In this document: positions 8,951 through 64,000 of the stretch, in pieces | Numbering within the stretch: position 1 is the stretch's first letter | How the letters are laid out: each line of letters opens with the position of its first letter | Assembly: GCA_964016885.1 (NCBI GenBank) | Contig: OZ024740.1 | Coordinates: 146,940,001 to 147,004,000 of the forward strand | Direction of reading: 5' to 3' | DNA length: 64,000 bases | Source of the DNA: Eledone cirrhosa | Taxonomy: Eukaryota | The notes under the pieces: model-generated | The model's input: only the letters and a program-made list of their open reading frames with translations | Told to the model about the DNA's origin: nothing | Databases searched by the model: none | Translations under genes and position numbers: made by a program

Positions 8951-9862
8951 ATATACACATTTTAAAGTAGATTTGACCAAGACTAGAATATGTGATTAAT
9001 GGTATATTTATTTGCTATTTCTCTCATTTTCTGACACATTAAATGTATCTACGGTTTGAGGAAGATTTCGTTGCTACAACTAGCATTGCCTAAGACACCA
9101 GAAAAAAGTATTTCACTGTGCTCACAGCATTTTACAAAACTGTGTTGTGTGAGGGAGATTTGATGTTGTTTTTAATAGGTTTTATGCCATATTTATATAT
9201 GTATGTGTCCCGTAAAATGGAATTTATTTTTCTTTTAAAGAGATCGATAAAATAAGCTGCTATAAAAGTTACCAAAATTAATTCAAAACATACGTTTGCT
9301 GGTGAACACACACACACACATACATGTGTGTGTGTGTTTTGTATAAATGTGTGTGTATATGTATACAGTGTACATATGTGTGCACGTGTGTCTGTTTTTT
9401 TTTTTTTTATATTTGATCATGTTAAATACTATGAGCTATACATTTAATACGCTGTTTTCAGAATACAGAAGACTTGAAATAAATGAAAAAAAAACCCCCC
9501 TCATAATTAAAAGGAATTGATTAATTAATAACCCTACATTCAATCGTTAGCGTCTACCCTCTATATAGTGTCGTTTAGGTTGGATGGCCATGTCTTGCGC
9601 ATAAAATGTCGACCTTTCTTTCTCCCTTTTCATATAAAGTGTGAAACTAATAAGACATTTTGTATCTCTGTTTTGTCGTTTCCTTGAACTTTATGTATAA
9701 ATATCTATATTTACAACTTAGCTTCGACATGAATGTGAATTTCGTATATCTAAAGATATACGGTATGTTTAATAAATAAACATTTTGAAAGCCTCAGCTA
9801 TGAATAGATGGTTGACGGCTAGCGCCGTCTAGCGGAATCCAGCAGAAGCAAGGGGGATAATT

Positions 9863-9899
9863 GTCTATGCATTTCGAACTTAAATGGTCTCATCAGGAC
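9863..9899 (-). ncRNA. Minimal type I hammerhead ribozyme motif
   Basis: Minus strand: GTC-CTGATGA-GACCATTTAAGTTC-GAAA-TGCA-TA-GAC. Palindromic stem III; weak stems I and II. Confidence 0.55.
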
Positions 9900-10513
9900 C
9901 ATACTCTCCCAATAAGACAGGCGAAAAACTATATATTTTTGCCTGCCCTGATGAAAACCATATATGTGTGTGTATATATATATATTGAAGGATAAGTGTT
10001 TCAAACTGTATTTTATCATGAGTTAAAGGTCTATAGATTTTTCCCTGGATTTTACTAAATTCTGTGGATGAATTTATATCCTGATTCTCTTTTGAGATGA
10101 GTTTGAGTTATTTTTCCTAAATCTTTCGTTAACTACTTTTCCCATCTTGACGTTATAGTCGCATATATGTTATAGAATGCCGTTAGCTTCTTGCTAAAAC
10201 AATCTCTATACCTTTCATTTATATTTATACTCGGATTCTTTTCCTAGAGTGCTTAAACTATCTGTGACTAATCCCGGTTTTTTTCATAAAAACTGTGATA
10301 ATTATTGCTATTTTGCTGAACTCCTTTGTAGAGTTTTTTTCAGAATGTATTTGACTGCTATTTCTTGTAAATAAACATTCACTTCCATCCTGACGTCACT
10401 AGCCCCGTTTTTTCCTCATGTGCTTTTTCATGAATACACATGAAGGCGAACTAGCCAGTTTTAGAATTCCCTTTTTCGGATTATACTACTGTGAGAGCCC
10501 TGGTTTCTGTTGA

Positions 10514-10594
10514 GCTCTGCTGATGAATGAAATCCAACCGTGACCATCTCCACTGAAAGTTTTCATGAAATAGTCTTTTAAGACTATACAGAGC
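10514..10594 (+). ncRNA. Type I hammerhead ribozyme (array copy 1)
   Basis: GCTCTG-CTGATGA-ATGAAA..28 nt..TTTCAT-GAAA-TAGTCTT-TT-AAGACTA-TA-CAGAGC. All three stems pair; predicted cut after AUA at 10588. Confidence 0.9.
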
Positions 10595-11142
10595 ATTTGA
10601 TGTTATTCCAAATTGAAGGATAAGTGTTTCAAACTGTATTTTATCATGAGTTAAAGGTCTATAGATTTTTCCCTGGATTTTACTAAATTCTGTGGATGAA
10701 TTTATATCCTGATTCTCTTTTGAGATGAGTTTGAGTTATTTTTCCTAAATCTTTCGTTAACTACTTTTCCCATCTTGACGTTATAGTCGCATATATGTTA
10801 TAGAATGCCGTTAGCTTCTTGCTAAAACAATCTCTATACCTTTCATTTATATTTATACTCGGATTCTTTTCCTAGAGTGCTTAAACTATCTGTGACTAAT
10901 CCCGGTTTTTTTCATAAAAACTGTGATAATTATTGCTATTTTGCTGAACTCCTTTGTAGAGTTTTTTTTCAGAATGTATTTGACTGCTATTTCTTGTAAA
11001 TAAACATTCACTTCCATCCTGACGTCACTAGCCCCGTTTTTTCCTCATGTGCTTTTTCATGAATACACATGAAGGCGAACTAGCCAGTTTTAGAATTCCC
11101 TTTTTCGGATTATACTACTGTGAGAGCCCTGGTTTCTGTTGA

Positions 11143-11223
11143 GCTCTGCTGATGAATGAAATCCAACCGTGACCATCTCCACTGAAAGTTTTCATGAAAT
11201 AGTCTTTTAAGACTATACAGAGC
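11143..11223 (+). ncRNA. Type I hammerhead ribozyme (array copy 2)
   Basis: Same sequence as 10514-10594. Confidence 0.9.
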
Positions 11224-11773
11224 ATTTGATGTTATTCCAAATTGAAGGATAAGTGTTTCAAACTGTATTTTATCATGAGTTAAAGGTCTATAGATTTTTC
11301 CCTGGATTTTACTAAATTCTGTGGATGAATTTATATCCTGATTCTCTTTTGAGATGAGTTTGAGTTATTTTTCCTAAATCTTTCGTTAACTACTTTTCCC
11401 ATCTTGACGTTATAGTCGCATATATGTTATAGAATGCCGTTAGCTTCTTGCTAAAACAATCTCTATACCTTTCATTTATATTTATACTCGGATTCTTTTC
11501 CTAGAGTGCTTAAACTATCTGTGACTAATCCCGGTTTTTTTTTTCATAAAAACTGTGATAATTATTGCTATTTTGCTGAACTCCTTTGTAGAGTTTTTTT
11601 CAGAATGTATTTGACTGCTATTTCTTGTAAATAAACATTCACTTCCATCCTGACGTCACTAGCCCCGTTTTTTCCTCATGTGCTTTTTCATGAATACACA
11701 TGAAGGCGAACTAGCCAGTTTTAGAATTCCCTTTTTCGGATTATACTACTGTGAGAGCCCTGGTTTCTGTTGA

Positions 11774-11854
11774 GCTCTGCTGATGAATGAAATCCAACCG
11801 TGACCATCTCCACTGAAAGTTTTCATGAAATAGTCTTTTAAGACTATACAGAGC
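11774..11854 (+). ncRNA. Type I hammerhead ribozyme (array copy 3)
   Basis: Same sequence as 10514-10594. Confidence 0.9.
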
Positions 11855-12104
11855 ATTTGATGTTATTCCAAATTGAAGGATAAGTGTTTCAAACTGTATT
11901 TTATCATGAGTTAAAGGTCTATAGATTTTTCCCTGGATTTTACTAAATTCTGTGGATGAATTTATATCCTGATTCTCTTTTGAGATGAGTTTGAGTTATT
12001 TTTCCTAAATCTTTCGTTAACTACTTTTCCCATCTTGACGTTATAGTCGCATATATGTTATAGAATGCCGTTAGCTTCTTGCTAAAACAATCTCTATACC
12101 TTTC

Positions 12105-12165
<61 letters not shown>

Positions 12166-12171
<6 letters not shown>

Positions 12172-13588
12172 TGAAATTGTCTGTGTGTATGTGTGTCCTA
12201 ATTTTTGCAAAGTCTATACAAATACACATTTCTACTTCGATTGACTTTAAACTTGCATTTATATATTCCTTGCGGTCTAAAGGTATTAACTGCAGCTTTT
12301 ATTTTTCAATTTTCTGTTGTTAAAGGGGTATTAGGGGCCGGTTAGCGATCTCTCTCTCTCTTTCTTAGCCTGTATTTTTAGATAGATACATAGCTATAAC
12401 GTCGCGCCCTTATAATATCTGTTTGTATGTCTAGCTGTCTGCATTACGACATTATGAAAACATTGTTATCATTGCTGACGTATTATCTTCGCTATTTTCC
12501 GTTCATTGCCAGGGAACATCTTCACGAACCAAAGTATCGTCTTCATGTTTTCCTTCGGTTCACAGATTGATTTTTTAGTTTCAAAAGATCCCGTTAAGGG
12601 TGGAAGCAGCGATTCTTTGCTTAAACTTTAATCTGTTATTTTAATATATATATATATATATATATAATTATATATTCGTGTACAGATAGTTTTGCATACA
12701 CAAAAACAAAATATAAACAAACGTATTTATTTCACGAAAGCACAGACGGCTTATCGTCATTGTTACTGCCGATATGCGACCCAAAAAGTCCCTCTACTTT
12801 TGGCACAAGGCCAGCAATTACATAGTCAATGGTTCGGAAATCACATGCATCTTTGACGAGTTTACTCCTTACTCTACCAGTTAGTCTTAGTGAACTTCGT
12901 CCTGCTTTTAGGTCATGCCTCGAAGGAAGAGATACTCCATTAGCCGAAATACTGCGAAAGCGGCAAGAAAAAGAACAAGGCAAGTAAACGAATCGTCAGT
13001 GGAATCTGCTATTCGACGGTCGCAAGATGCTGAACGTACTGCCACCAGAAGAGCACTTGAAACAGACAACCAACGAACCATTCGCCGAACCGTGTCAGCT
13101 TTGCAATGTCTATCAACAAATCCCTGGGTCAGACCCTAGCTGTTGCTGGTCTTCTTTTGGAAGTCATGTTTTTCACACGGGGAACTATACGTTGGCTGCT
13201 CAAGAGTGGGAAGCAAGACAAATCTCTTTGCATATGCCTGACACAGAAGAACAAGGAACATTGTGTACAAGCAGGTGCTACAATTATTGTTTAGGTAGAC
13301 GAGACAGAAGGGGATATACACGATTGGCGGAAGAAGGACGAGACTGTGTTAGTAGTACGACCAACGGCTGCTATCACACTAACAGCAGCAAAACAACAAC
13401 AAAAAAGAGAGAGAACGCAATTGCATGCTTTTGAAAAATCTTAATGGAAAATTATTTGCCTAAGCACAAAATGTAGAAACCATCCCCAGGCCGAGGTATT
13501 CCGTACTTCTCTGTACTGTTTCAGAAAGGAGGGATAAACATGCCAATCTATGGTTAGAAGCCGGAGCAACGCCGGGCCATTCTGCGAG
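12166..13588 (+). mobile_element. Internally deleted Helitron (RepHel N-terminus joined to helicase C-terminus)
   Basis: MPRRKRYSISRNTAKAARK... resembles Helitron N-termini. FAMSINKSLGQTL..GL.L then (frameshifted) FSHGELYVGCSRVG matches PIF1 helicase motifs V/VI. 3' end CCGGAGCAACGCCGG hairpin then CGAG|T (degenerate CTAG). The 5' end is hidden in (TA)n. Confidence 0.8.
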
Positions 13589-15310: not shown

Positions 15311-16160
15311 GTGGTTTTTCTCACATCTGGTTGGTCTTTGAATGTTACTTCTGTTTTATATGGAAAAAAGTGGCTCACGAAGGCTTTTTTTAAAATAAAT
15401 GTAATTTGATTCGTTATAAATGAAATTATGACTGTCACGTGAACAAGTAAGTACATAACATGCTAACCATCCAAACAGATGCATACATACACAGACACAT
15501 AACGCCTTCTACTTTAGAAAATAAAAATCAGAACTAAATAAACCTTAACATACGTTAATACTCTAACACCTTAACATGCCCCCCCCCCCCCCCCACACAC
15601 ACACATAACTCCCTCCCCCATTTCTACTAACGGAATCATTTTCCTACACACACACACACACACACACACATACACACACACACACACAATATATATTCTC
15701 TCCATCTTAACACGCTAACCATACTCCCACACACACATACATAGACACATAACACCCATACACACACACAACCCCCTCCCCCATTTTTACTAATAGAATC
15801 ATCTTCCTACACACACACAAGCACACAAATAAACATATATATCTCTACTTTCTTTATTTCAATAGAAAGTCTGAATTCTGACACCCCATCGCACCAGCCA
15901 TATTCACTGAACCAGAACAATTCTCCCCATCCAATTTTTCTTGACCATTATCTTTTGTTTGGCACAAAATTCTCTAAAAGGCTACAAAATAAATTCCCAA
16001 ATACGGGCGCGAAATTTAATGTACTTGTTCACGTGACAGTCATAATTTCATTTATAACCAATCAAATTACATTTATTTTAAAAAAAGCCTTCGTGAGCCA
16101 CTTTTTTCCATATAAAACAGAAGTAACATTCAAAGACCAACCAGATGTGAGAAAAACCAC
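15311..16160. repeat. Inverted repeat, about 138-bp arms (15311-15448 / 16022-16160), abutting a Penelope fragment
   Basis: gtggtttttctcacatctggttggtctttgaatg... versus ...cattcaaagaccaaccagatgtgagaaaaaccac. Confidence 0.9.
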
Positions 16161-16654
16161 AAGGCAAGTGCTTCCTTAAAATACCACACCTGGGCGAGAA
16201 TACCACCAACACTATCCGCAGGGTTATACGGAGAGAGGGCCTCGACATCCACCTGGCCCACTCGGGCCCCTCCCTGCGAAGATGCCTCTCCAGGAAACCC
16301 GGGAAATCGACTGACGCGTGTTCCTTCAGAAACTGTCCGATGCGCCATACGAACTGTTGCTTACGCACATACGTCGTGTATAAGGTAGAATGTGACAAGT
16401 GCAACCACTACTATATCGGTAGCACAATCCGGCCGCTACACATCCGGATCAAGGAGCACATCAACACCAGGGCCTCGTCTTTCCGGAAACACATAACCAA
16501 ATGCGGAAACAAAGTCGGAAGGCCCATTGTCACAGTGCTAGCGACAGAACGCAACGTCGGCACGTTACGAATCAAGGAAGCCCATTGGATCAAACGCCTA
16601 GGGCCACACATAAATAACCGATCCGAGAGAAGAGAAATGAGGTGGTTGGTATAA
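16161..16654 (+). mobile_element. Penelope-like element 3' fragment (linker plus GIY-YIG endonuclease)
   Basis: FLKIPHLGENTT..LAHSGPSLRRCLS; VVYKVECDKCNHYYIGSTIRPLHIRIKEH..LRIKEAHWIKRLGPHINNR. Relative of 1116-1877. Confidence 0.85.
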
Positions 16655-17164: not shown

Positions 17165-17465
17165 ATTTAATATAGAAAAGCATCTACAGGACTAGAACCG
17201 TTTCATTCGTGAGAAATCACCAGGAAGCTGACTGTCGAAGTAAATGTGGTGGTATTTATATATTTTCTGGTGGTAGGAGAGGGTGGTGATTGGGATGGGT
17301 GGAGGTCATTGGTTGATGGATTTAAAGAAAAGGGAGTTCATTAAAAGCTAATTCTTTAAAGCGATAATTTATATTAACAAAGGCAGAAAGAAAACTGTAA
17401 ACAGGTTCAAGTGTTGGGGTGCTTCCCCTTATTGTGAAGTTTCTCTTAATTTATATTCCAGGTGT
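17165..17465 (-). mobile_element. Hammerhead-bearing repeat, same family as 26300/28462/34586; core mutated
   Basis: Homologous to 26300-26610; the motif at 17179-17229 reads CTGGTGA instead of CTGATGA. Confidence 0.7.
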
Positions 17466-21161: not shown

Positions 21162-21351
21162 ATTAGGAACCAGTAAGACCCCGACAGCTGAGCTAAAGCC
21201 GTTTCGACGGCTAATTCCAGAATTAGCCGTCGAAACGGCTTGAGCTCAGCTGTCGGGGGTCTTACTGGTTCCTAATACCCACTCTACTACCTCAAGTATT
21301 GAGTACTTTGGTGCGTTATGGTCCACCTGGTTCCTTACCACATTTCCTTCG

Positions 21352-21353
<2 letters not shown>
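21162..21353. repeat. Short TA-flanked element with hairpin 21162-21276 and a hammerhead 3' half; copies at 24827-25028 and 33100-33195
   Basis: GACGGCTAATTC..GAATTAGCCGTC-GAAA-CGGCTTGAGCTCAGCTG-TC; shared tail gagtactttggtgcgttatggtccacctggttccttaccacatttccttcgtta. Confidence 0.8.
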
Positions 21354-24753: not shown

Positions 24754-24831
<78 letters not shown>

Positions 24832-25144
24832 AACGAGTCAAACCGCGACGGCTGAGCTCAAGCCGTTTCGACGGCTAATTCTGGACTAAAATCAGAATTA
24901 GCCGTCGAAACGGCTTGAGCTCAGCCGTCCGGGTTTTACTCGTTCCTATTACCCACTCTACTACCCTAAGTATTGAGTACTTTGGTGCGTTATGGTCCAC
25001 CTGGTTCCTTACCACATTTCCTTCGTTATATATATATATATATAAATGTATATATATATATATATATTTATATATATGTATATATATATATGTATATATG
25101 TATGTGTACGTATGTATGTGTGTGTGTATGTATGTGTGTATATA

Positions 25145-26246: not shown

Positions 26247-26302
<56 letters not shown>

Positions 26303-26314
26303 TTAATATAGATG

Positions 26315-26365
26315 AGATTCTACAGGACTAGAACTGTTTCATTCATTAGAAATCATCAGGAATCT
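26315..26365 (-). ncRNA. Type I hammerhead motif (mirror of 28462-28512)
   Basis: Reverse complement of the plus-strand copy. Confidence 0.8.
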
Positions 26366-26968
26366 GGGTATCAAAAAATAAATATGGTATTTATAGGTCT
26401 CTACAAGTGGTAGGAGAGGGTGGGGAGTGGGATGGGTGCAGGTCATTGGTTGATAGAAAAGGGAATTCATTAAAAGCTAATTCTACAAAGCTATAGTTTA
26501 TTTTTATTTATTTATGTTTTTAGAGTAACAAGGGCAGACAGAATTCTATAAACAGGTTCCGGATGGCATACCATTCCTTGTCATTAAGTTTCTCTTAAGC
26601 TAACAGGTGTCTATAAAATCAGTGGGGGGTCAGTCATGGTCGATAGAATTAAAGAAAAGGGAGATTCTTTAAAAGCTAAAGTCATTAAGGTTCTACTAAG
26701 TGACAAAGGTCTAGAGAATTCTGCAGACAGATTCAAAATACTGAGTGCATATCTTACTATTATCTTCGAACTTCTCTTAAACTAATCAACTATATGCCAA
26801 AAATCAACAGACACATTCACAAAAAAACAAAAAACCACATACTCACTCACACACTTACGCGCAACCATAAACACACACACAAACACATATACACACATAA
26901 AAACACACACACATATATAAAAATATATATTCATGTACACACACATACATACACACATACACACATAC

Positions 26969-27857: not shown

Positions 27858-28461
27858 GTGTGTGTGTATGTGTGTATGTATGTGTGTGTACATGAATATA
27901 TATTTTTATATATGTGTGTGTGTTTTTATGTGTGTATATGTGTTTGTGTGTGTGTTTATGGTTGCGTGTAAGTGTGTGAGTGAGTATGTGGTTTTTTTGT
28001 TTTTTTGTGAATGTGTCTGTTGATTTTTGGCATATAGTTGATTAGTTTAAGAGAAGTTCGAAGATAATAGTAAGATATGCACTCAGTATTTTGAATCTGT
28101 CTGCAGAATTCTCTAGACCTTTGTCACTTAGTAGAACCTTAATGACTTTAGCTTTTAAAGAATCTCCCTTTTCTTTAATTCTATCGACCATGACTGACCC
28201 CCCACTGATTTTATAGACACCTGTTAGCTTAAGAGAAACTTAATGACAAGGAATGGTATGCCATCCGGAACCTGTTTATAGAATTCTGTCTGCCCTTGTT
28301 ACTCTAAAAACATAAATAAATAAAAATAAACTATAGCTTTGTAGAATTAGCTTTTAATGAATTCCCTTTTCTATCAACCAATGACCTGCACCCATCCCAC
28401 TCCCCACCCTCTCCTACCACTTGTAGAGACCTATAAATACCATATTTATTTTTTGATACCC

Positions 28462-28512
28462 AGATTCCTGATGATTTCTAATGAATGAAACAGTTCTAGT
28501 CCTGTAGAATCT
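28462..28512 (+). ncRNA. Type I hammerhead motif
   Basis: AGATTC-CTGATGA-T TTC TAAT GAA T-GAAA-CAG TTCTAGTC CTG-TA-GAATCT; GUA cleavage triplet. Confidence 0.8.
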
Positions 28513-28595
28513 CATCTATATTAAAACTTTTATACTCTGCTATGTATTGAGTACCTTACTTACTGTGGTTACCTCCGATTCAACCCGGAATAACG

Positions 28596-28636
<41 letters not shown>

Positions 28637-32997: not shown

Positions 32998-33271
32998 ACC
33001 CTCTTCCTGCTATTTCAAGCGTTAATCTAATATATCCTTCCATATACTGTACCAATTGTGTTGTTATTTCTGTTTGCCTTATATATATATATATATATAT
33101 AACGAAGGAAATGTGGTAAGGAACCAGGTGGACCATAACGCACCAAAGTACTCAAACGGCTTGACCTCAGCCGTCGGGGTCTTACTGGTTCCTATATATA
33201 GTGGTGGAACACTGGAAGGTAATATCCGTAGTGGTAGAGCACTCAGTCCATGGGACGAGTTAGGTAGAAGT

Positions 33272-34545
33272 GGTTACACAACAGTTAGTTCACCATACCT
33301 AGAACAATTGTTTCACCTTAGCGGATCGTAATGGGCATGGTTATAGGAACAGGAAGGACAACCGTACGAACGCGCATGCGCAGGAACCCGGTCACCTCAC
33401 ACAGGCAATACTAGAATGCGTGCGAGAGGTGTAAGGGAGATAACTGCGAAAGTCCGAAAATTTTTAGTTGAAAATAAAATTACAAGGAATCAGTCCGGAG
33501 CTTTGTAGTTATGCAATAGGTGTTTGGCGACGTGTGGACAACGTGTGAAGAATTCATTTCTCGTGTTTAGGCAATCACTATTGCGTAATCTCTTTAGAAT
33601 AGTTATTCGCTCGTCAATACATAAGCCACACGTCGAATTTCCCCTTGCATATGGCTTGGACTTAGTGATGGCTTCCATTGGATGGAGTAGTCTATACTTG
33701 AGTCCTTGAGGGACCATACGTGGCTCGCGAGTTTCGAGGATGAACGTCTGTCCGGGTACCTGAAGGCAGACTGGTGGTTCAGGAAACGTTCCTTAAATCG
33801 GCCCTCCATCATGCCCACATAGGATTTGACCTCCTGTGGTTCGTTTGGTCGGTTGGAAGTGACCACAGCTTCATAAATTATAGCTGGTGTGTTACATTGC
33901 TGTTGAAGGGGGAAAGCTTCGGGCTTACGGCAAGAGCACCCTGGTGGGGTGTTGCTCCTAGGGCTGTTGGTGATGTGGGTCTTCATGTTCTTAGCGCAGG
34001 AGTATCCTAGTTTAACTTTGTGTCGGTTAAAGATGGAGCGGTATTTATGACCTATGGGGAAGTGTCTATCTAAGAGGGCTAGAAATATTTTTCCTACATT
34101 GGTTTTAACGTTGAGTGAGAAGGGAGGAGAGAACCAGATAGTTTGTCTATTGTTGCGCTTACTTTTCTTAATGGTGTTGTTGCTAGTGGGAGAGTAGGTG
34201 ATAGGTTGTGAGAAGCCGTTGTTAGCCAACGCCGTGTTATAGCAGGGTGCCGCCTTGTCAAAGATAGCCATATTAGAGGAGAGGTTTGAGATTCTAGTAC
34301 TGATATTCTTAACGAAGTTTCTAAAAACAGTGGGAGGGTGGCATGAGTCCTTGTGAATGTAATTGAGTTTCTCGTTTAGCTTATGGAAGGGTCTGTGGGT
34401 GTGTGTGCGAAGGTCTAAATTAATGTTTAAGAAATCTACGCTAGAGGGGTTGGTGGCTACTGTTATTCTAAGTCCTAACGCATTGAGGATCCGCTAAGGT
34501 GAAACAATTGTTCTCGGTATGGTGAACTAACTGTTGTGTAACCGC
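33272..34545 (-). mobile_element. 5'-truncated Penelope-like element (end of RT, Cys linker, GIY-YIG) with an inverted terminal segment
   Basis: WFSPPFSLNVKTNVGKIFL, LGYSC, IIYEAVV..SYVGMMEGRFKERF.NH, CGLCIDER..LNTRNE..CPH. 33272-33327 is inverted at 34488-34543. Confidence 0.88.
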
Positions 34546-34546
34546 T

Positions 34547-34585
<39 letters not shown>

Positions 34586-34591
<6 letters not shown>

Positions 34592-34765
34592 GAAATGGCT
34601 TCTACAGGACTAGAACTGTTTCATTCGGAGGAAATCCTGATGATTTCCTCCGAATGAAACAGTTCTAGTCCTGTAGAAGCCATTTCTATATTAAATTACT
34701 TTTACTCTGCTATGTATTGAGTACCTTACTTACTGTGGTTATCCCCGATTTAACCCGGGATCTAC
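34586..34765 (+). repeat. Perfect ~51-bp-arm hairpin (34586-34692) centred on a hammerhead core, plus family tail
   Basis: cggaggaaatc-CTGAT-gatttcctccg at the centre; the tail matches 28530-28590. Confidence 0.88.
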
Positions 34766-54043: not shown

Positions 54044-54257
54044 GTACTGTTGTCTCCTAGAGACAGGATCAAAGCTTATGGCCATTAGAATATATATTAA
54101 AACATTTCTCTCTTTTGAAAAAATTAGAGTCTTTACCCTAATACTGGAAATTTTCAGAATGATCTATCCACTAATAAATTTACTATAAACATTTGAATCA
54201 AACCTATTTTTAGATAAGAGATAAATTGTGCAGAATTTAGAAAAATCTGTTTCATAC

Positions 54258-54419
54258 CATTAGGTTTACAGGATTTACAACAATGGGCTCTCATAGATTT
54301 CTTTTCACAGAATGATGGTACCAGTTGTAGAAGGTGTGTACAGTTATTTGGCTGGACATTTCCGTTTACCGTTACCACTTCGAACATAAGTTGCTGGCTG
54401 TCTCCAAATGGGCAACTCT
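54258..54419 (-). CDS. Internal host-gene exon encoding a cysteine-rich PLAC/ShKT-like module
   Basis: Minus strand: ttttccattttcctatatgttCAG| acceptor and G|GTATGA donor. 162 bp, phase 1-1, open frame: SCPFGDSQQLMFEVVTVNGNVQPNNCTHLLQLVPSFCEKKSMRAHCCKSCKPN. Confidence 0.7.
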
Positions 54420-54584
54420 CTGAACATATAGGAAAATGGAAAATAACCAATAAGTAGAAAGATAGGAAACATTTTCAAAAACATGATTTTCAGTTCAATG
54501 CCTTGTGAATTAAATTTTGTAGATAGAAACTACATAGAAGATGCTGTGGGTATGTGTGAGAAAGAGAGAGAGAAAATGAGATTG

Positions 54585-57500
54585 TGTGTGTCTGTGTCTC
54601 CGTGTTTGTCTCCGTGTTTGTCTCCGTGTTTGTCTCCGTGTTTGTCTCCGTGTTTGTCTCCGTGTTTGTCTCCGTGTTTGTCTCCGTGTTTGTCTCCGTG
54701 TTTGTCTCCGTGTTTGTCTCCGTGTTTGTCTCCGTGTTTGTCTCCGTGTTTGTCTCCGTGTTTGTCTCCGTGTTTGTCTCCGTGTTTGTCTCCGTGTTTG
54801 TCTCCGTGTTTGTCTCTCTGTGTTTGTCTCTCTGTGTTTGTCTCTCTGTGTTTGTCTCTCTGTGTCTGTCTCTCTGTGTCTGTCTCTCTGTGTCTGTCTC
54901 TCTGTGTCTGTCTCTGTCTCCGTGTCTGTCTCCGTGTCTGTCTCCGTGTCTGTCTCCGTGTCTGTCTCTGTCTCTGTGTCTGTCTCTGTCTCTGTGTCAG
55001 TGTCTGTCTCTGTCTCTGTGTCAGTGCCTGTCTCTGTCTCTGTGTCAGTGTCTGTGTCAGTGTCTGTATCAGTGTCTGTGTCAGTGTCTGTATCAGTGTG
55101 TGTATCAGTGTGTGTATGAAGTGTGTGTATCAGTGTGTGTATCAGTGTGTGTGTCTGTGTCTGTGTGTGTGTGGCTGTGTCTATCTGTCTGTCTGTGTGT
55201 GTGTGTGTGTGTGAATGTCTGTGTCTGTATGTGTGTGTGACTGTGTCTGTCTGTCTGTGTGACTGTGTCTGTCTGTGTGTGTGACTGTGTCTGCATGACT
55301 GTCTGTGTCTGTCTGTGTCTCTGTCTGTCTCTCTGTCTGTCTCTCTGTCTGTGTCTCTCTGTCTGTGTCTCTCTGTCTGTGTCTCTCTGTCTGTGTCTCT
55401 CTGTGTCTGTCTCTCTGTGTCTGTCTCTCCGTCTGTCTCTGTGTCTGTCTCTGCCTCTGTCTCTGTGTCTGTCTCTGTGTCTGTCTCTGCGTCTGTCTCT
55501 GTGTCTGTCTCTGCGTCTGTCTCTGTGTCTGTCTCTGCCTCTGTCTCTGTGTCTGTCTCTGCATCTGTCTCTGTCTCTACGTCTGTCTTGGTGTCTGTGT
55601 CTGTCTCTGTGTCTGCGTCTGTCTCTGTGTCTGTGTCTGTGTCTGTGTCTGTCTCTGTGTCTGTCTCTGTCTCTGCGTCTGTCTCTGCGTCTGTCTCTGC
55701 GTCTGTCTCTGCGTCTGTCTCTGCGTCTGTCTCTGCGTCTGTCTCTGCGTCTGTCTCTGCGTCTGTCTCTGCGTCTGTCTCTGCGCCTGTCTCTGCGCCT
55801 GTCTCTGTGTCTGTGTCTGTGTCTGTGTCTGTGTCTGTCTCTGTCTCTGTGTCTGTCTCTGTGTCTGTCTCTACGTCTGTCTCTGCGTCTGTGTCTGCGT
55901 CTGTGTCTGTCTCTGTGTCTGTCTCTGTGTCCGTCTCTGTGTCCGTCTCTGTGTCCGTCTCTGTGTCCGTCTCTGTCTCTGTCTCTGTGTCTGTCTCTGT
56001 GTCTCTCTCTGTGTCTGTCTCTGTGTCTGTCTCTGTCTCTGTCTCTGTCTCTGCGTCTGTCTCTGCGTCTGTCTCTGCGTCTGTCTCGTCTGTCTCTGCG
56101 TCTGTCTCTGCGTCTGTCTCTGCGTCTGTCTCTGCGTCTGTCTCTGCGTCTGTCTCTGCGTCTGTCTCTGCGTCTGTCTCTGCGTCTGTCTCTGTGTCCG
56201 TCTCTGCGTCTGTCTCTACGTCTGTCTCTGCGTCCGTCTCTGCACCCGTCTCTGCGTCCGTCTCTGCCTCCGTGGCTGTCTCCGTGTCTGTCTCTGTGTC
56301 TGTCTCTGTGTCTGTCTCTGTGTCTGTCTCTGTGTCTGTCTGTCTCTGCGTCTGTCTCTGCGTCTGTCTCTGCGTCTGTCTCTGCGTCTGTCTCTGCGTC
56401 TGTCTCTGCGTCTGTCTCTGTGTCTGTCTCTGTGTCTGTCTCTGTGTCTGTCTCTGTGTCTGTCTCTGCGTCTGTCTCTGCGTCTGTCTCTGCGTCTGTC
56501 TCTGCGTCTGTCTCTGCGTCTGTCTCTGCGTCTGTCTCTGCGTCTGTCTCTGCGTCTGTCTCTGTGTCTGTCTCTGTGTCTGTCTCTGTGTCTGTCTCTG
56601 TGTCTGTCTCTGTGTCTGTCTCTGTGTCTGTCTCTGTGTCTGTCTCTGTGTCTGTCTCTGTGTCTGTCTCTGTGTCTGTCTCTGTGTCTGTCTCTGTCTC
56701 TGTCTCTGTCTCTGTGTCTGTGTCTGTCTCTGTGTCTGTCTCTGTATCTATCTCTGTGTCTGTCAGTCTCTGTGTCTGTGTCTGTGTATGTGTCTGTGTC
56801 TGTCTCTGCGTCTGTCTCTGCGTCTGTCACGTCTGTCTCTGCGTCTGTCTCTGCGTCTGTCACTGCGTCTGTCTCTGCGTCTGTCTCTGAGTCTGTCTCT
56901 CCGTCTGTCTCTCCGTCTGTCTCTGCGTCCGTCTCTGCGTCCGTCTCTGCGTCCGTCTCTGCGTCCGTCTCTGCGTCCGTCTCTGCGTCCGTCTCTGCGT
57001 CCGTCTCTGCGTCTGTCTCTACGTCTCTGTGTCTGTCTCTGTGTCTGTCTCTGTGTCTGTCTCTGTGTCTGTCTCTGCGTCTGCGTCTGCGTCTGTCTCT
57101 GCGTCTGTCTCTGCGTCTGTCTCTGCGTCTGTCTCTGCGTCTGTCTCTGCGTCTGTCTCTGCGTCTGTCTCTGCGTCTGTCTCTGCGTCTGTCTCTGCGT
57201 CTGTCTCTGCGTCTGTCTCTGCGTCTGTCTCTGCGTCTGTCTCTGCGTCTGTCTCTGCCTCTGTCTCTGTCTCTGCGTCTGTCTCTGCGTCTGTCTCTGC
57301 GTCTGTCTCTGCGTCTGTCTCTGCGTCTGTCTCTGCGTCTGTCTCTGCGTCTGCGTCTGCCTCTGCGTCTGCCTCTGCGTCTGTCTCTGTCTCTGTCTCT
57401 GCCTCTGTCTCTGCCTCTTCGTCTGTCTCTGCGTCTGTCTCTGCGTCTGTCTCTGCGTCTGTCTCTGCGTCTGTCTCTGCGTCTGCCTCTGCGTCTGCCT

Positions 57501-60500
57501 CTGCGTCTGCCTCTGCGTCTGCCTCTGCGTCTGCCTCTGCGTCTGCCTCTGCGTCTGCCTCTGCGTCTGCCTCTGCGTCTGCCTCTGCGTCTGCCTCTGC
57601 GTCTGTCTCTGCGTCTGTCTCTGCGTCTGTCTCTGCGTCTGTCTCTGTGTCTGTCTCTGTGTCTGTCTCTGTGTCTGTCTCTGTGTCTGTCTCTGTGTCT
57701 GTCTCTGTGTCTGTCTCTGTCTCTACGTCTGTCTCTGCGTCTGTCTCTGCGTCTGTCTCTGCGTCTGCGTCTGTCTCTGCGTCTCTCTCTGCGTCTGTCT
57801 CTGTGTCTGTCTCTGTGTCTGTCTCTGTGTCTGTCTCTGTGTCTGTCTCTGTGTCTGTCTCTGTGTCTGTCCCTGTGTCTGTCCCTGTGTCTGTCTCTGT
57901 CTCTGTCTCTGTCTCTGTGTCTGTCTCTGTGTCTGTCTCTGTGTCTGTCTCTGTGTCTGTCTCTGTGTCTGTCTCTGTGTCTGTCTCTGTGTCTGTCTCT
58001 GTGTCTGTCTCTGTGTCTGTCTCTGTGTCTGTCTCTGTGTCTGTCTCTGTGTCTGTCTCTGTGTCTGTCTCTGTGTCTGTCTCTGCGTCTGTCTCTGCGT
58101 CTGTCTCTGCGTCTGTCTCTGTGTCCGTCTCTGTCTCTGTCTCTGTGTCTGTCTCTGTGTCTGTGTCTGTCTCTGTCTCTGCGTCTGTCTCTCCGTCTGT
58201 CTCTGCGTCCGTCTCTGCGTCCGTCTCTGCGTCCGTCTCTGCGTCCGTCTCTGCGTCCGTCTCTGCGTCCGTCTCTGCGTCCGTCTCTGCGTCTGTCTCT
58301 ACGTCTCTGTGTCTGTCTCTGTGTCTGTCTCTGTGTCTGTCTCTGTGTCTGTCTCTGCGTCTGCGTCTGCGTCTGTCTCTGCGTCTGTCTCTGCGTCTGT
58401 CTCTGCGTCTGTCTCTGCGTCTGTCTCTGCGTCTGTCTCTGCGTCTGTCTCTGCGTCTGTCTCTGCGTCTGTCTCTGCGTCTGTCTCTGCGTCTGTCTCT
58501 GCGTCTGTCTCTGCGTCTGTCTCTGCCTCTGTCTCTGTCTCTGCGTCTGTCTCTGCGTCTGTCTCTCCGTCTGTCTCTGCGTCCGTCTCTGCGTCCGTCT
58601 CTGCGTCCGTCTCTGCGTCCGTCTCTGCGTCCGTCTCTGCGTCCGTCTCTGCGTCCGTCTCTGCGTCTGTCTCTACGTCTCTGTGTCTGTCTCTGTGTCT
58701 GTCTCTGTGTCTGTCTCTGTGTCTGTCTCTGCGTCTGCGTCTGCGTCTGTCTCTGCGTCTGTCTCTGCGTCTGTCTCTGCGTCTGTCTCTGCGTCTGTCT
58801 CTGCGTCTGTCTCTGCGTCTGTCTCTGCGTCTGTCTCTGCGTCTGTCTCTGCGTCTGTCTCTGCGTCTGTCTCTGCGTCTGTCTCTGCGTCTGTCTCTGC
58901 GTCTGTCTCTGCCTCTGTCTCTGCCTCTTCGTCTGTCTCTGCGTCTGTCTCTGCGTCTGTCTCTGCGTCTGTCTCTGCGTCTGTCTCTGCGTCTGCCTCT
59001 GCGTCTGCCTCTGCGTCTGCCTCTGCGTCTGCCTCTGCGTCTGCCTCTGCGTCTGCCTCTGCGTCTGCCTCTGCGTCTGCCTCTGCGTCTGCCTCTGCGT
59101 CTGCCTCTGCGTCTGTCTCTGCGTCTGTCTCTGCGTCTGTCTCTGCGTCTGTCTCTGTGTCTGTCTCTGTGTCTGTCTCTGTGTCTGTCTCTGTGTCTGT
59201 CTCTGTGTCTGTCTCTGTCTCTACGTCTGTCTCTGCGTCTGTCTCTGCGTCTGTCTCTGCGTCTGCGTCTGTCTCTGCGTCTCTCTCTGCGTCTGTCTCT
59301 GTGTCTGTCTCTGTGTCTGTCTCTGTGTCTGTCTCTGTGTCTGTCTCTGTGTCTGTCTCTGTGTCTGTCCCTGTGTCTGTCCCTGTGTCTGTCTCTGTCT
59401 CTGTCTCTGTCTCTGTGTCTGTCTCTGTGTCTGTCTCTGTGTCTGTCTCTGTGTCTGTCTCTGTGTCTGTCTCTGTGTCTGTCTCTGTGTCTGTCTCTGT
59501 GTCTGTCTCTGTGTCTGTCTCTGTGTCTGTCTCTGTGTCTGTCTCTGTGTCTGTCTCTGTGTCTGTCTCTGTGTCTGTCTCTGCGTCTGTCTCTGCGTCT
59601 GTCTCTGCGTCTGTCTCTGTGTCCGTCTCTGTCTCTGTCTCTGTGTCTGTCTCTGTGTCTGTGTCTGTCTCTGTCTCAACGTCTGTCCCTGCGTCTGTCT
59701 CTGCGTCTGTCTCTGCGTCTGTCTCTGCGTCTGTCTCTGCGTCTGTCTCTGCGTCTGTCTCTGCGTCTGTCTCTACGTCTGTCTCTGCGTCTGTCTCTGC
59801 GTCTGTCTCTGCGTCCGTCTCTGCGTCCGTCTCTGCGTCCGTCTCTGCGTCCGTCTCTGCGTCCGTCTCTGCGTCCGTCTCTGCGTCCGTCTCTGTGTCC
59901 GTCTCTGTGTCTGTCTCTGTGTCTGTCTCTGTGTCTGTCACTGTGTCTGTCTCTCCGTCTGTCTCTGTGTCTGTCTCTGCGTCTGTCTCTGCGTCTGTCT
60001 CTGCGTCTGTCTCTGTGTCTCTGTGTCTGTCTCTGCGTCTGTCTCTGCCTCTGTCTCTGCCTCTGTGTCTGCCTCTGTGTCTGTCTCTGTGTCTGTCTCT
60101 GTGTCTGTCTCTGTGTCTGTCTCTCCGTCTGTCTCTGTGTCTGTCTCTTCGTCTGTCTCTTCGTCTGTCTCTGCGTCTGTCTCTGCGTCTGTCTCTGCGT
60201 CTGTCTCTGCGTCTGTCTCTGCGTCTGTCTCTGCGTCTGTCTCTGCGTCTGTCTCTGCGTCTGTCTCTGCGTCTGTCTCTGCGTCTGTCTCTGCGTCTGT
60301 CTCTGCGTCTGTCTCTGCGTCTGTCTCTGCGTCTGTCTCTGCGTCCGTCTCTGTGTCTGTCTCTGTGTCTGTCTCTGTCTCTGTGTCTGTCTCTCCGTCT
60401 GTCTCTCCGTCTGTCTCTGCGTCTGTCTCTGCGTCTGTCTCTGCGTCTGTCTCTGCGCCTGTCTCTGCGCCTGTCTCTGCGCCTGTCTCTGCGCCTGTCT

Positions 60501-63500
60501 CTGCGCCTGTCTCTGCGCCTGTCTCTGCGCCTGTCTCTGCGCCTGTCTCTGCGCCTGTCTCTGCGCCTGTCTCTGCGCCTGTCTCTGCGTCTGTCTCTGC
60601 GTCTGTCTCTGCGTCTGTCTCTGCGTCTGTCTCTGCGTCTGTCTCTGCGTCTGTCTCTGCGTCTGTCTCTGCGTCTGTCTCTGCGCCTGTCTCTGCCTCT
60701 GTCTCTGCCTCTGTCTCTGCCTCTGTCTCTGCCTCTGTCTCTGCCTCTGTCTCTGCCTCTGTCTCTGCCTCTGTCTCTGCCTCTGTCTCTGCCTCTGTCT
60801 CTGTCTCTGCCTCTGCGTCTGCCTCTGCGTCTGTCTCTGCGTCTGTGTCTGCCTCTGTCTCTGTCTCTGTGTCTGTCTCTGTGTCTGTCTCTGTGTCTGT
60901 CTCTGTGTCTGTCTCTGTGTCTGTCTCTGTGTCTGTCTCTGTGTCTGTCTCTGTGTCTGTCTCTGTGTCTGTCTCTGTGTCTGTCTCTGTGTCTGTGTCT
61001 GTGTCTGTGTCTGTGTCTGTCTCTGTGTCTGTCTCTGCGTCTGTCTCTGCGTCTGTCTCTGTCTCTGCGTCTGTTTCTGCCTCTGCCTCTGTGTCTGCCT
61101 CTGTGTCTGCCTCTGTGTCTGCCTCTGTGTCTGTCTCTGTGTCTGTGTCTGTCTCTGTGTCTGTGTCTGTCTCTGTCTCTGTGTCTGTCTCTGTGTCTGT
61201 CTCTGTGTCTGTGTCTGTCTCTGTGTCTGTGTCTGTCTCTGCCTCTGTGTCTGTCTCTGCCTCTGCGTCTGTTTCTGCCTCTGCCTCTGTGTCTGCCTCT
61301 GTGTCTGCCTCTGTGTCTGCCTCTGTGTCTGCCTCTGTGTCTGTCTCTGTGTCTGTCTCTGTGTCTGTCTCTGTGTCTGTCTCTGTGTCTGTCTCTGTGT
61401 CTGTCTCTGTGTCTGTCTCTGTGTCTGTCTCTGTGTCTGTGTCTGTGTCTGTGTCTGTCTCTGTGTCTGTCTCTGTGTCTGTGTCTGTCTCTGTGTCTGT
61501 GTCTGTGTCTGTCTCTGTGTCTGTGTCTGTGTCTGTCTCTGTGTCTGTGTCTGCGTCTGTCTCTGCGTCTGTCTCTGCGTCTGTCTCTGCGTCTGTCTCT
61601 GCGTCTGTCTCTGTCTCTGCGTCTGTTTCTGCCTCCGCCTCTGCGTCCGCCTCTGCGTCCGCCTCTGCGTCCGCCTCTGCGTCCGCCTCTGCGTCCGCCT
61701 CTGCGTCCGCCTCTGCGTCCGCCTCTGCGTCCGCGTCTGCGTCCGCGTCTGCGTCCGCGTCTGCGTCCGCGTCTGCGTCCGCGTCTGCGTCCGTCTCTGC
61801 GTCTGTGTCTGCCTCTGTGTCTGTCTCTGTGTCTGTGTCTGTGTCTGTGTCTGTGTCTGTGTCTGTGTCTGTCTCTGTGTCTGTCTCTGTGTCTGTCTCT
61901 GTGTCTGTCTCTGTGTCTGTCTCTGTGTCTGTCTCTGTGTCTGTCTCTGCGTCTGTCTCTGCGTCTGTCTCTGCGTCTGTCTCTGCGTCTGTCTCTGCGT
62001 CTGTCTCTCTGTCTCTGTGTCTGTCTCTCTGTCTCTGTGTCTGTCTCTCTGTCTCTGTGTCTGTCTCTGTGTCTGTCTCTGTGTCTGTCTCTGTGTCTGT
62101 CTCTGTGTCTGTCTCTGTGTCTGTCTCTGTGTCTGTCTCTGTCACTGTGTCTGTCTCTGTGTCTGTCTCTGTGTCTGTCTCTGTGTCTGTCTCTGTGTCT
62201 GTCTCTGTGTCTGTCTCTGTCTCTGTCTCTGTCTCTGCGTCTGTCTCTGCGTCTGTCTCTGCGTCTGCGTCTGCGTCTGCGTCTGTCTCTGCCTCTGTGT
62301 CTGCCTCTGTGTCTGCCTCTGTGTCTGCTTCTGTGTCTGTCTCTGTGTCTGTCTCTGTGTCTGTCTCTGTGTCTGTCTCTGTGTCTGTCTCTGTGTCTGT
62401 CTCTGTGTCTGTCTCTGTGTCTGTCTCTGTGTCTGTCTCTGTGTCTGTCTCTGTGTCTGTCTCTGTGTCTGTCTCTGTGTCTGTCTCTGTGTCTGTCTCT
62501 GTGTCTGTGTCCGTCTCTGTGTCCGTCTCTGTGTCCGTCTCTGTGTCCGTCTCTGTGTCCGTCTCTGTGCCCGTCTCTGTGTCCGTCTCTGTGTCCGTCT
62601 CTGTGTCCGTCTCTGTGTCCGTCTCTGTGTCCGTCTCTGTCTCTTTCTCTGTGTCCGTCTCTGTCTCTTTCTCTGTGTCTGTCTCTTTCTCTGTCTCTTT
62701 CTCTGTGTCTGTCTCTGTGTCTGTCTCTGTGTCTGTCTCTGTGTCTGTCTCTGTGTCTGTCTCTGCGTCTGTCTCTGCGTCTGTCTCTGCGTCTGTCTCT
62801 GCGTCTGTCTCTGCGTCTGTCTCTGCGTCTGTCTCTGCGTCTGTCTCTGCGTCTGTCTCTGCGTCTGCCTCTGCGTCTGCCTCTGCCTCTGCCTCTGTCT
62901 CTGCCTCTGCCTCTGCCTCTGCGTCTGTCTCTGCGTCTGTCTCTGCGTCTGTCTCTGTGTCTGTCTCTGTGTCTGTCTCTGTGTCTGTCTCTGTCTCTGT
63001 CTCTGTCTCTGTGTCTGTCTCTGTCTCTGTGTCTGTCTCTGTGTCTGTCTCTGTGTCTGTCTCTGTGTCTGTCTCTGTGTCTGTCTCTGTGTCTGTCTCT
63101 GTGTCTGTCTCTGTGTCTGTCTCTGTGTCTGTCTCTGTGTCTGTCTCTGTGTCTGTCTCTGTGTCTGTCTCTGTGTCTGTCTCTGTGTCTGTCTCTGTGT
63201 CCGTCTCTGTGTCCGTCTCTGTGTCCGTCTCTGTGTCCGTCTCTGTCTCCGTCTCTGTCTCCGTCTCTGTCTCCGTCTCTGTCTCCGTGTCTGTCTCCGT
63301 CTCTGTCTCCGTCTCTGTCTCCGTCTCTGTCTCCGTCTCTGTGTCCGTCTCTGTGTCCGTCTCTGTGTCCGTCTCTGTGTCCGTCTCTGTGTCCGTCTCT
63401 GTGTCTGTCTCTGTGTCTGTCTCTTTCTCTGTCTCTGTGTCTGTCTCTGTGTCTGTCTCTGTGTCTGTCTCTGTGTCTGTCTCTGTGTCTGTCTCTGTGT

Positions 63501-64000
63501 CTGTCTCTGTGTCTGTCTCTGTGTCTGTCTCTGTGTCTGTCTCTGTGTCTGTGTCCGTCTCTGTGTCCGTCTCTGTGTCCGTCTCTGTGTCCGTCTCTGT
63601 CTCCGTGTCTGTCTCCGTGTCTGTCTCCGTGTCTGTCTCCGTGTCTGTCTCCGTGTCTGTCTCCGTGTCTGTCTCTGTCTCTGCGTCTGTCTCTGCGTCT
63701 GTCTCTGTGTCTGTCTCTGTGTCTCTGTGTCTGTCTCTGTGTCTGTCTCTGTGTCTGTGTCTGTGTCTGTGTCTGTGTCTGTGTCTGTCTCTGTGTCTGT
63801 CTCTGTGTCTGTCTCTGTGTCTGTCTCTGCGTCTGTCTCTGCGTCTGTCTCTGCGTCTGTCTCTGCGTCTGTCTCTGCGTCTGTCTCTGCGTCTGTCTCT
63901 GCGTCTGTCTCTGCGTCTGTCTCTGCGTCTGTCTCTGCGTCTGTCTCTGCGTCTGTCTCTCTGTCTCTGTGTCTGTCTCTCTGTCTCTGTGTCTGTCTCT
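54585..64000. repeat. >9.4-kb satellite of 6/12-bp units (GTCTCT with GTGTCT/GCGTCT/GCCTCT/GCGTCC variants), running off the window end
   Basis: Direct inspection; almost no A on the plus strand; blocks of variant 12-mers. Confidence 0.97.

Follow-up and report, generated by a model that had tools for sequence, protein, structure and literature searches.

Tandem Array and Its Borders

The window, which is the whole 64-kb stretch of Eledone cirrhosa DNA analysed here, contains a tandem array of 2,129 nt. Its head-to-tail units start in register and lie between two simple repeats. The features of the array are as follows, with positions counted in the window.

9984..12112, plus strand: whole array, 3.38 units; starts 24 nt past the equivalent of the cut site and ends 259-264 nt past the last cut site
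9984..10611, plus strand: unit 1, 628 nt
10612..11240, plus strand: unit 2, 629 nt
11241..11871, plus strand: unit 3, 631 nt
11872..12112, plus strand: partial unit 4, 241 nt, without a hammerhead; enters the TA tract via a 5-nt TATAT microhomology
9960..9983, no strand: left TA/TG microsatellite, putative half of the target site
12108..12167, no strand: right (TA)30 microsatellite, putative other half of the target site

The final 5 nt are common to the array and the right TA tract, and the end of the array is thus placed at 12107-12112. No target-site duplication was readable inside the TA tracts at the two ends. Pairwise comparison of the units revealed no substitution; they differ in the length of two poly-T runs, corresponding to 1, 3, and 4 gap positions. 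The near-identical repeat of about 629 bp between TA tracts described by the initial annotation was thus recovered in full. With its period limit of 500, Tandem Repeats Finder misses the array. The absence of substitutions over 2,129 nt bounds the divergence at about 0.0014 (95%); with the octopus calibration of PMC13282606, the array would be younger than 0.4 million years, if that rate applies and the units are not homogenised. The array is real, well formed, and young.

The annotation had also reported no long open reading frame in the units, and this holds: no stop-to-stop frame is longer than 84 aa, and the four unit frames had no Pfam match at E ≤ 0.001 (one domain of unknown function reached E 0.08, under the cut-off). 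At this locus, no reverse transcriptase (RT) or GIY-YIG frame was found between or beside the units. Neither a second copy of the unit nor an inverted copy was found elsewhere within the 64-kb window. The GC content of the unit is 33.7% and its U content 40%. Each unit includes 16 runs of at least four T and neither a B-box nor a TATA match, and the window contains no tRNA. The T-runs together with the lack of a B-box argue against transcription by RNA polymerase III.

Hammerhead Motifs of the Units

Each full unit carries one type I hammerhead, in which the core elements CUGAUGA and GAAA and the cut triplet AUA are found in the type I order.

10514..10594, plus strand: type I hammerhead 1, predicted cut after A10588 (AUA)
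11143..11223, plus strand: type I hammerhead 2, predicted cut after 11217
11774..11854, plus strand: type I hammerhead 3, predicted cut after 11848

In hammerhead 1, stem I is formed by 10514-10519 and 10589-10594 (6 bp), and stem II by 10527-10532 and 10561-10566 (6 bp, with a 28-nt loop). The core occupies 10520-10526 (CUGAUGA) and 10567-10569 (GAA). Stem III is folded from 10570-10587, with 7 bp and a 4-nt loop. The three stems thus have 6, 6, and 7 Watson-Crick pairs. The same parts are found at +629 and +1260 for hammerheads 2 and 3, and these motif positions reproduce the three cut sites and the monomer size of about 630 nt given by the initial annotation. Its description of the ribozyme stands for the two 6-bp stems and the intact core. 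Stem III has 7 bp, since an eighth pair requires a 2-nt loop, and the first pair of stem II is A10527-U10566, not the conserved G10.1-C11.1. According to PMC4209133, the latter pair is highly conserved and not invariant. Stem II starts with ATG, and that frame ends after nine codons.

The motif is not expected by chance. The type I descriptor matched in none of 5000 dinucleotide shuffles of the unit, even when the stems were relaxed to 5, 4, and 3 bp. The Rfam search proposed by the annotation turned out negative: no match was obtained in the window at the gathering score, and no hammerhead family appeared among the four and five matches at E ≤ 10. The snoRNA, miRNA, and sRNA matches obtained (E 1.3-8) were rejected as chance. 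The same scan also overlooked the window's 12 further hammerhead motifs, which makes its negative result a weak one.

Predicted Folding and Pairing of Stem III

The minimum-energy structure of a 121-nt piece (10495-10615) is the hammerhead, at -21.2 kcal/mol, an energy not better than that of shuffled sequences (z -0.43). Two further features were defined by computation.

10589..11217, plus strand: predicted cut-to-cut monomer, 629 nt; circular fold of -134 kcal/mol, 60% paired
10501..10505, plus strand: UGGUU, candidate pseudoknot with loop II (10542-10546 or 10536-10540); computed on unit 2, as 11130-11134 with 11171-11175 or 11165-11169

The fold of the monomer circle has a z of -4.3, the lowest of nine stretches, with four of seven unrelated control stretches at -2.6 to -3.1. 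In long contexts, as in the monomer circle, stems I and II form with a probability of 0.09. The values for stem I span 0.00 to 0.99 across 45 choices of flank, and those for stem II vary with flank over the same range. As modelled, the active hammerhead fold is dependent on its context.

Stem III is a near-palindrome. Sixteen of its 18 bases pair with a second copy through palindromic arms of 8, and the predicted inter-unit duplex reaches -18.0 kcal/mol, compared with -5.3 kcal/mol for each of two hairpins. With the duplex stronger than two hairpins, action as a monomer and action as a dimer are both compatible with the motif. The stable stem III had been taken as a sign of monomeric cleavage, unlike Penelope elements; since the inter-unit duplex is stronger, this sign does not establish monomeric cleavage. 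The supposed contrast with Penelope is weakened: a second hammerhead family in the window has a long stem III as well, and the helix III of fungal and protist Penelope-like elements is large (PMC4209133).

No canonical contact between loop I and loop II is evident. Pseudoknots are a known alternative to this contact, and four candidate 5-bp pairings of loop II with the flanks were computed without covariation support; 11 hammerheads of the window aligned too poorly for covariation to be read. Among other copies, the indel with the best support within the hammerhead is the loss of one T at the centre of the palindrome, at 10576 (73 of 479 reads in run X12).

Related Copies in Public DNA Runs

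Ten of the 14 public runs listed contain part of the stretch, and six of them, from three coded organisms, contain at least half its words. Four runs (X1, X2, X4, and X12) were compared over 9400-12700.

Run X1 contributed 10,821 contigs and X12 16,922 reads over this interval, mostly 90-95% alike; both counts include the flanks of the array, which are separate high-copy repeats. The right flank, 12200-12620, is a very high-copy repeat in X1 and X12, with a depth more than 10 times that of the unit. When the X1 depth is folded onto one unit, it is 57-74 thousand at +1 to +280, 37 thousand at +281 to +350, 16 thousand at +351 to +490, 32 thousand at +491 to +560, and 62 thousand at +561 to +630; this is summed contig depth in bins of 111 nt and not copy number, and poly-T variation could depress its middle. 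For comparison, single listed contigs have depths of 4-11. The shape of the X1 profile fits a large set of copies that are 5'-truncated and share their 3' end, and in which the hammerhead and roughly 280 nt following it are retained. The unit belongs to a dispersed multi-copy family, with many diverged copies in one organism (runs X1 and X12). Pile-ups of the RAD run X12 that end at 9738, 10611, 11874, and 11949 were considered as element ends and rejected as enzyme cuts, since they fall on AATT sites.

In X2 and X4 (organisms B and C), the phase of the array 3' end is bridged by single contigs, 487 and 474 nt long, with three other letters and one gap; shorter contigs (124 and 130 nt, one other letter) extend across the cut site and the phase of the 5' end. 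These contigs are about 99% identical to the array, and both array-end positions are bridged. They come from one study and are among 24 pieces listed of 11,073, none of which spans the locus. Depth at the junctions is 13-14 in X2 and 6-9 in X4, compared with 2-3 for several diverged pieces, and the X4 depth is flat over the unit, at 6-12. The bridging of both junctions indicates that an ORF-less, permuted unit exists outside this assembly. Some letters are common to all units of the window and differ from the runs (for example 10214, 10432/11061, and 10486), which indicates that the units of the window derive from one template.

A 20-base pattern of the unit was seen at four loci in metagenome contigs, none of which was similar beyond the pattern, and these were rejected. 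A tandem repeat of about 168 nt in two of the metagenome contigs (L001:4578-5022 and L003:4999-5611) has a word of 20-22 bases in common with the hammerhead, a chance match. Unit patterns had no match in viral and prokaryote genome contigs.

Other Hammerheads and Penelope Remnants in the Window

The window consists of animal transposon debris, with RT, Tc1-type, and GIY-YIG frames. No host gene was recognised among 130 frames of at least 62 aa, taken from 132 after two duplicates of a unit frame were omitted. A relaxed scan of 1-54000 found 15 type I hammerhead motifs with a palindromic stem III, of which three belong to the array; 60 block shuffles gave 0.12 on average. All 12 hammerheads outside the array combine a palindromic stem III with a microsatellite located 21-529 nt downstream of the cut. 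Two neighbouring hammerheads end 267 and 296 nt past the cut, to be compared with 259-264 nt for the 3' end of the array. The main features are listed below.

14437, 21701, 22076, 24435, 25754, 25891, 28980, 29530, and 31863: minimal hammerhead motifs at nine more positions, all near TA tracts and belonging to several sequence families
9835-9960 (core 9896), minus strand: degenerate minimal hammerhead of another high-copy repeat; adjoins the left TA tract of the array in opposite orientation
1599-1874 and 16151-16651: GIY-YIG coding remnants
33080-34550, minus strand: 5'-truncated element with a putative Penelope-type RT/endonuclease frame (33493-34493); a TA tract closes its 3' region, and its 5' end carries an inverted copy of 63 nt

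The minus-strand hammerhead at 9896 probably came into the same microsatellite by a separate insertion. The frame 33493-34493 is read as Penelope-type by its motifs, and Pfam gave no match for it. The 3' region of its element keeps the palindromic stem III and the GAAA, with an altered CUGANGA box, and its 3' end recurs near 21164-21352 and 24828-25026. No link of the unit to a Penelope coding element was shown by sequence; one of 20 region-strand comparisons came out marginally above shuffles. That likeness, to the left flank 9390-9800, was rejected, as it was reached by one of 200 shuffles among 20 comparisons of AT-rich DNA.

The second TA-flanked hammerhead family (26359 and 28468) has a long near-palindromic stem III and lies in the arms of an inverted repeat. 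These arms, 26299-26834 and 27993-28600, form a 100%-identical 536-nt inverted repeat with a microsatellite of 1.16 kb between them. Related pieces are found at 34585-34761 and 17165-17375, and the copy at 34585-34720 folds back through the hammerhead core. More than 500 nt without a recognised ORF lie upstream of the ribozyme. This family may be another non-autonomous Penelope derivative.

At the far end of the window, a pyrimidine-rich satellite with a 12-nt repeat fills 54595-64000 and runs off the window end; it covers at least 9.4 kb, and its plus strand contains almost no A. Beside it, on the minus strand (54157-54474), is a short frame with a PLAC/ShK-like cysteine pattern and without a Pfam match, at most a putative host exon.

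Origin of the Array

Among the origins considered, one from a retrozyme or Penelope element is the most likely. It is supported by the tandem structure, the intact core, the shuffle control, the agreement with the published definition and size of retrozymes, and the model of their origin from Penelope pLTRs. The window's other hammerheads and Penelope-type remnants, the similar 3'-end distances of two neighbours, the X1 depth profile, and the X2 and X4 junction contigs also speak for it. More specifically, the array is probably a young non-autonomous Penelope-like derivative, an animal non-LTR retrozyme, which was likely inserted as a ready-made multimer by the RT/endonuclease of a Penelope element located elsewhere.

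Under this reading, RNA polymerase II would read through the array, and the hammerheads would cut the transcript, probably helped by stem III pairing of neighbouring units. A host ligase would close the monomers into circles of 629 nt, as described for the retrozymes of coral, mussel, and axolotl (PMC7229834). A TA-targeting Penelope protein would then nick the (TA)n tract, and reverse transcription would start internally, at a point roughly 260 nt beyond the cut site. The reverse transcriptase would copy 3.38 rounds of the circle, or of the still uncut multimer, and halt 24 nt short of the cut site. In the anole, a Penelope-like protein nicks AT-rich DNA and initiates internally downstream of the hammerhead, mainly on uncut RNA (PMC11167929). 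The internal start is suggested by this anole element and by the neighbouring hammerheads, whose ends lie at nearly the same distance. A random stop as close to the cut site as the 5' end of the array is would occur about 4% of the time; the position of this end hints at a cut or structured end of the template, as judged from one event.

The partial last copy had been attributed to rolling reverse transcription of a circular RNA. The array fits this, and a linear multimer template or a DNA-level expansion of a 1.38-unit insertion would fit equally. One locus has no power to separate the insertion of a multimer from later expansion. In the latter case, a 1.38-unit Penelope-derived piece with a 241-nt terminal direct repeat would have been inserted once, with either unequal crossing-over or replication slippage extending it to 3.38 units; the result would be a pLTR-born minisatellite that requires no circular RNA. 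Such growth predicts the same ends, phase, and identity of units, the letters that set the window units apart from the runs are expected from one local source, and most family copies in X1 look partial. Local amplification of pLTR ends is also proposed in the preprint 10.64898/2026.07.22.740005. The starting template must still exceed one unit and lack an ORF, however, and the same junctions are found in the X2 and X4 contigs; in addition, zero substitutions over the array demand very recent or homogenised growth. Local expansion is considered unlikely.

It is improbable that an autonomous Penelope-like family, with its ORF elsewhere, has the unit as its ordinary, complete pLTR, and that its RT copied this pLTR repeatedly in an aberrant insertion without any self-propagating non-coding lineage. 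Penelope-like insertions are known as partial tandems with frequent 5' truncation, and the X1 depth drops upstream of the hammerhead. The ATG of stem II recalls the anole element, in which stem II marks the start of the ORF (PMC11167929), but here the frame is closed after nine codons and no coding remnant is seen in the unit. The listed X2 and X4 contigs cross the junction where the ORF would intervene, and the flat X4 depth also speaks against this origin.

Duplication of a single unit by the assembler is very improbable: the identity of the units, the microsatellite surroundings, and the lack of a locus-spanning long read among those seen would suit it, but the units differ in two poly-T lengths and both permuted-unit junctions are bridged in independent runs, which does not by itself prove the count of 3.38 at this locus.

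For the favoured origin as a retrozyme inserted as a multimer, the activity of the ribozyme is a separate matter. The A-U base of stem II, the lack of a canonical loop contact, and the low modelled probability of stems I and II would count against strong activity. One of nine predicted Xenopus retrozymes cleaved in vitro, according to 10.64898/2026.07.22.740005, so that unaided cutting by the ribozyme of the array is separately doubtful. The anole ribozyme required protein, and was dispensable for insertion (PMC11167929).

A more elaborate version, doubtful as a whole, would see a long, mobile invertebrate retrozyme just after rolling-circle insertion. Its ribozyme would be silent in the monomer circle, where stems I and II are sequestered, and become active only when the 8-bp arms of stem III are exchanged between units. 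A pseudoknot of loop II would replace the loop-loop contact, and a TA-targeting Penelope protein would be hijacked, with the start about 260 nt past the cut.

Penelope-driven mobilisation of animal retrozymes through circular RNA is so far a proposal (PMC7229834 and 10.64898/2026.07.22.740005). The array is a good test object in this respect, being very young and non-integer, with a definable start point of the RT, in a genome rich in TA-targeting Penelope pieces. If it is a fresh rolling-circle insertion, it would be a direct substrate for testing this still-hypothetical process. The long palindromic stem III, the large loop II, and the A-U base together constitute an architectural variant of the hammerhead that is missed by Rfam.

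Comparison with Known Systems

The published definition of animal non-LTR retrozymes, as given in a 2026 preprint with a vertebrate survey (10.64898/2026.07.22.740005), asks for at least two consecutive units, each with a complete type I hammerhead and a fold below -5 kcal/mol. The array has three consecutive full units, and the 121-nt piece folds well below that limit; the initial description as retrozyme-like is thus upheld. Retrozymes are further characterised as non-coding, with GC below 45-50%, and as multi-copy families that co-occur with Penelope-like elements. The short frames and low GC of the unit agree with this, as do the copies in X1 and X12 and the GIY-YIG remnants in the window. 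Unit sizes of 150-450 bp were given in 2020 (PMC7229834) and of 51-972 bp in the preprint. The unit had been called longer than typical animal retrozymes, which is true against the earlier range; against the later one it is not, since 629 nt falls inside it.

The annotation had set retrozyme and pLTR against each other as a clean alternative, and this does not hold, because the preprint derives retrozymes from the pLTRs of Penelope. In its scheme, the two readings are stages of one lineage. The unit has the palindromic stem III of a pLTR, and the flanking RT and GIY-YIG ORF is absent at this locus.

Animal non-LTR retrozymes are known from Acropora millepora (220-245 nt), Mytilus galloprovincialis (350-390 nt), and axolotl (330/350 nt), according to PMC7229834. 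The array resembles them in its head-to-tail non-coding units with one type I hammerhead each, its GC below 45%, the small number of units, the dispersed family, and the presence of Penelope-like elements in the same genome. It differs in its far longer stem III (7 bp, with arms of 8), its 28-nt loop II, and the A-U base of stem II, in not being recognised by Rfam, and in that it is known here from DNA alone. In the titles and abstract openings of the top-ranked papers, which are no proof of absence, no literature on this family or on cephalopod retrozymes was found.

With the Penelope pLTRs (PMC4209133, and Poseidon of Anolis in PMC11167929), the array shares the type I hammerhead, the palindromic stem III, the AT-rich or TA target, a 3' end at a fixed distance past the ribozyme, the 5' truncation, and the ATG at the start of stem II. 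Unlike them, it has no RT-GIY-YIG ORF between its hammerheads, and its helices are full, not of the minimal form. Neither an inverted 5' copy nor a readable tail of 30-40 bp is present at this single locus.

The hammerhead repeats of Schistosoma are named SM-alpha. Like these and newt satellite 2 (PMC7229834), the array is a tandem genomic repeat with a type I hammerhead, and a dimer-competent palindromic stem III is common to it and the amphibian (newt) repeats. In contrast to the newt and Schistosoma repeats, its unit is about twice as long, its stem III is strong where theirs has 1-2 bp, no canonical loop-loop contact is seen, and only 3.38 units are present at this locus.

Plant LTR retrozymes, according to PMC7761336, have a similar ribozyme-to-ribozyme distance of 600-1000 nt, are likewise non-coding, and are also proposed to pass through a circular intermediate. 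They carry type III hammerheads in their LTRs, a primer-binding site, a polypurine tract, and a 4-bp target duplication, and are GC-rich, whereas the array is of type I, head-to-tail without an internal region, and 34% GC. Thousands of elements of the kind to which the array belongs have been reported, and the picture of the class is unchanged by it; the array is a further member of a known and abundant kind.
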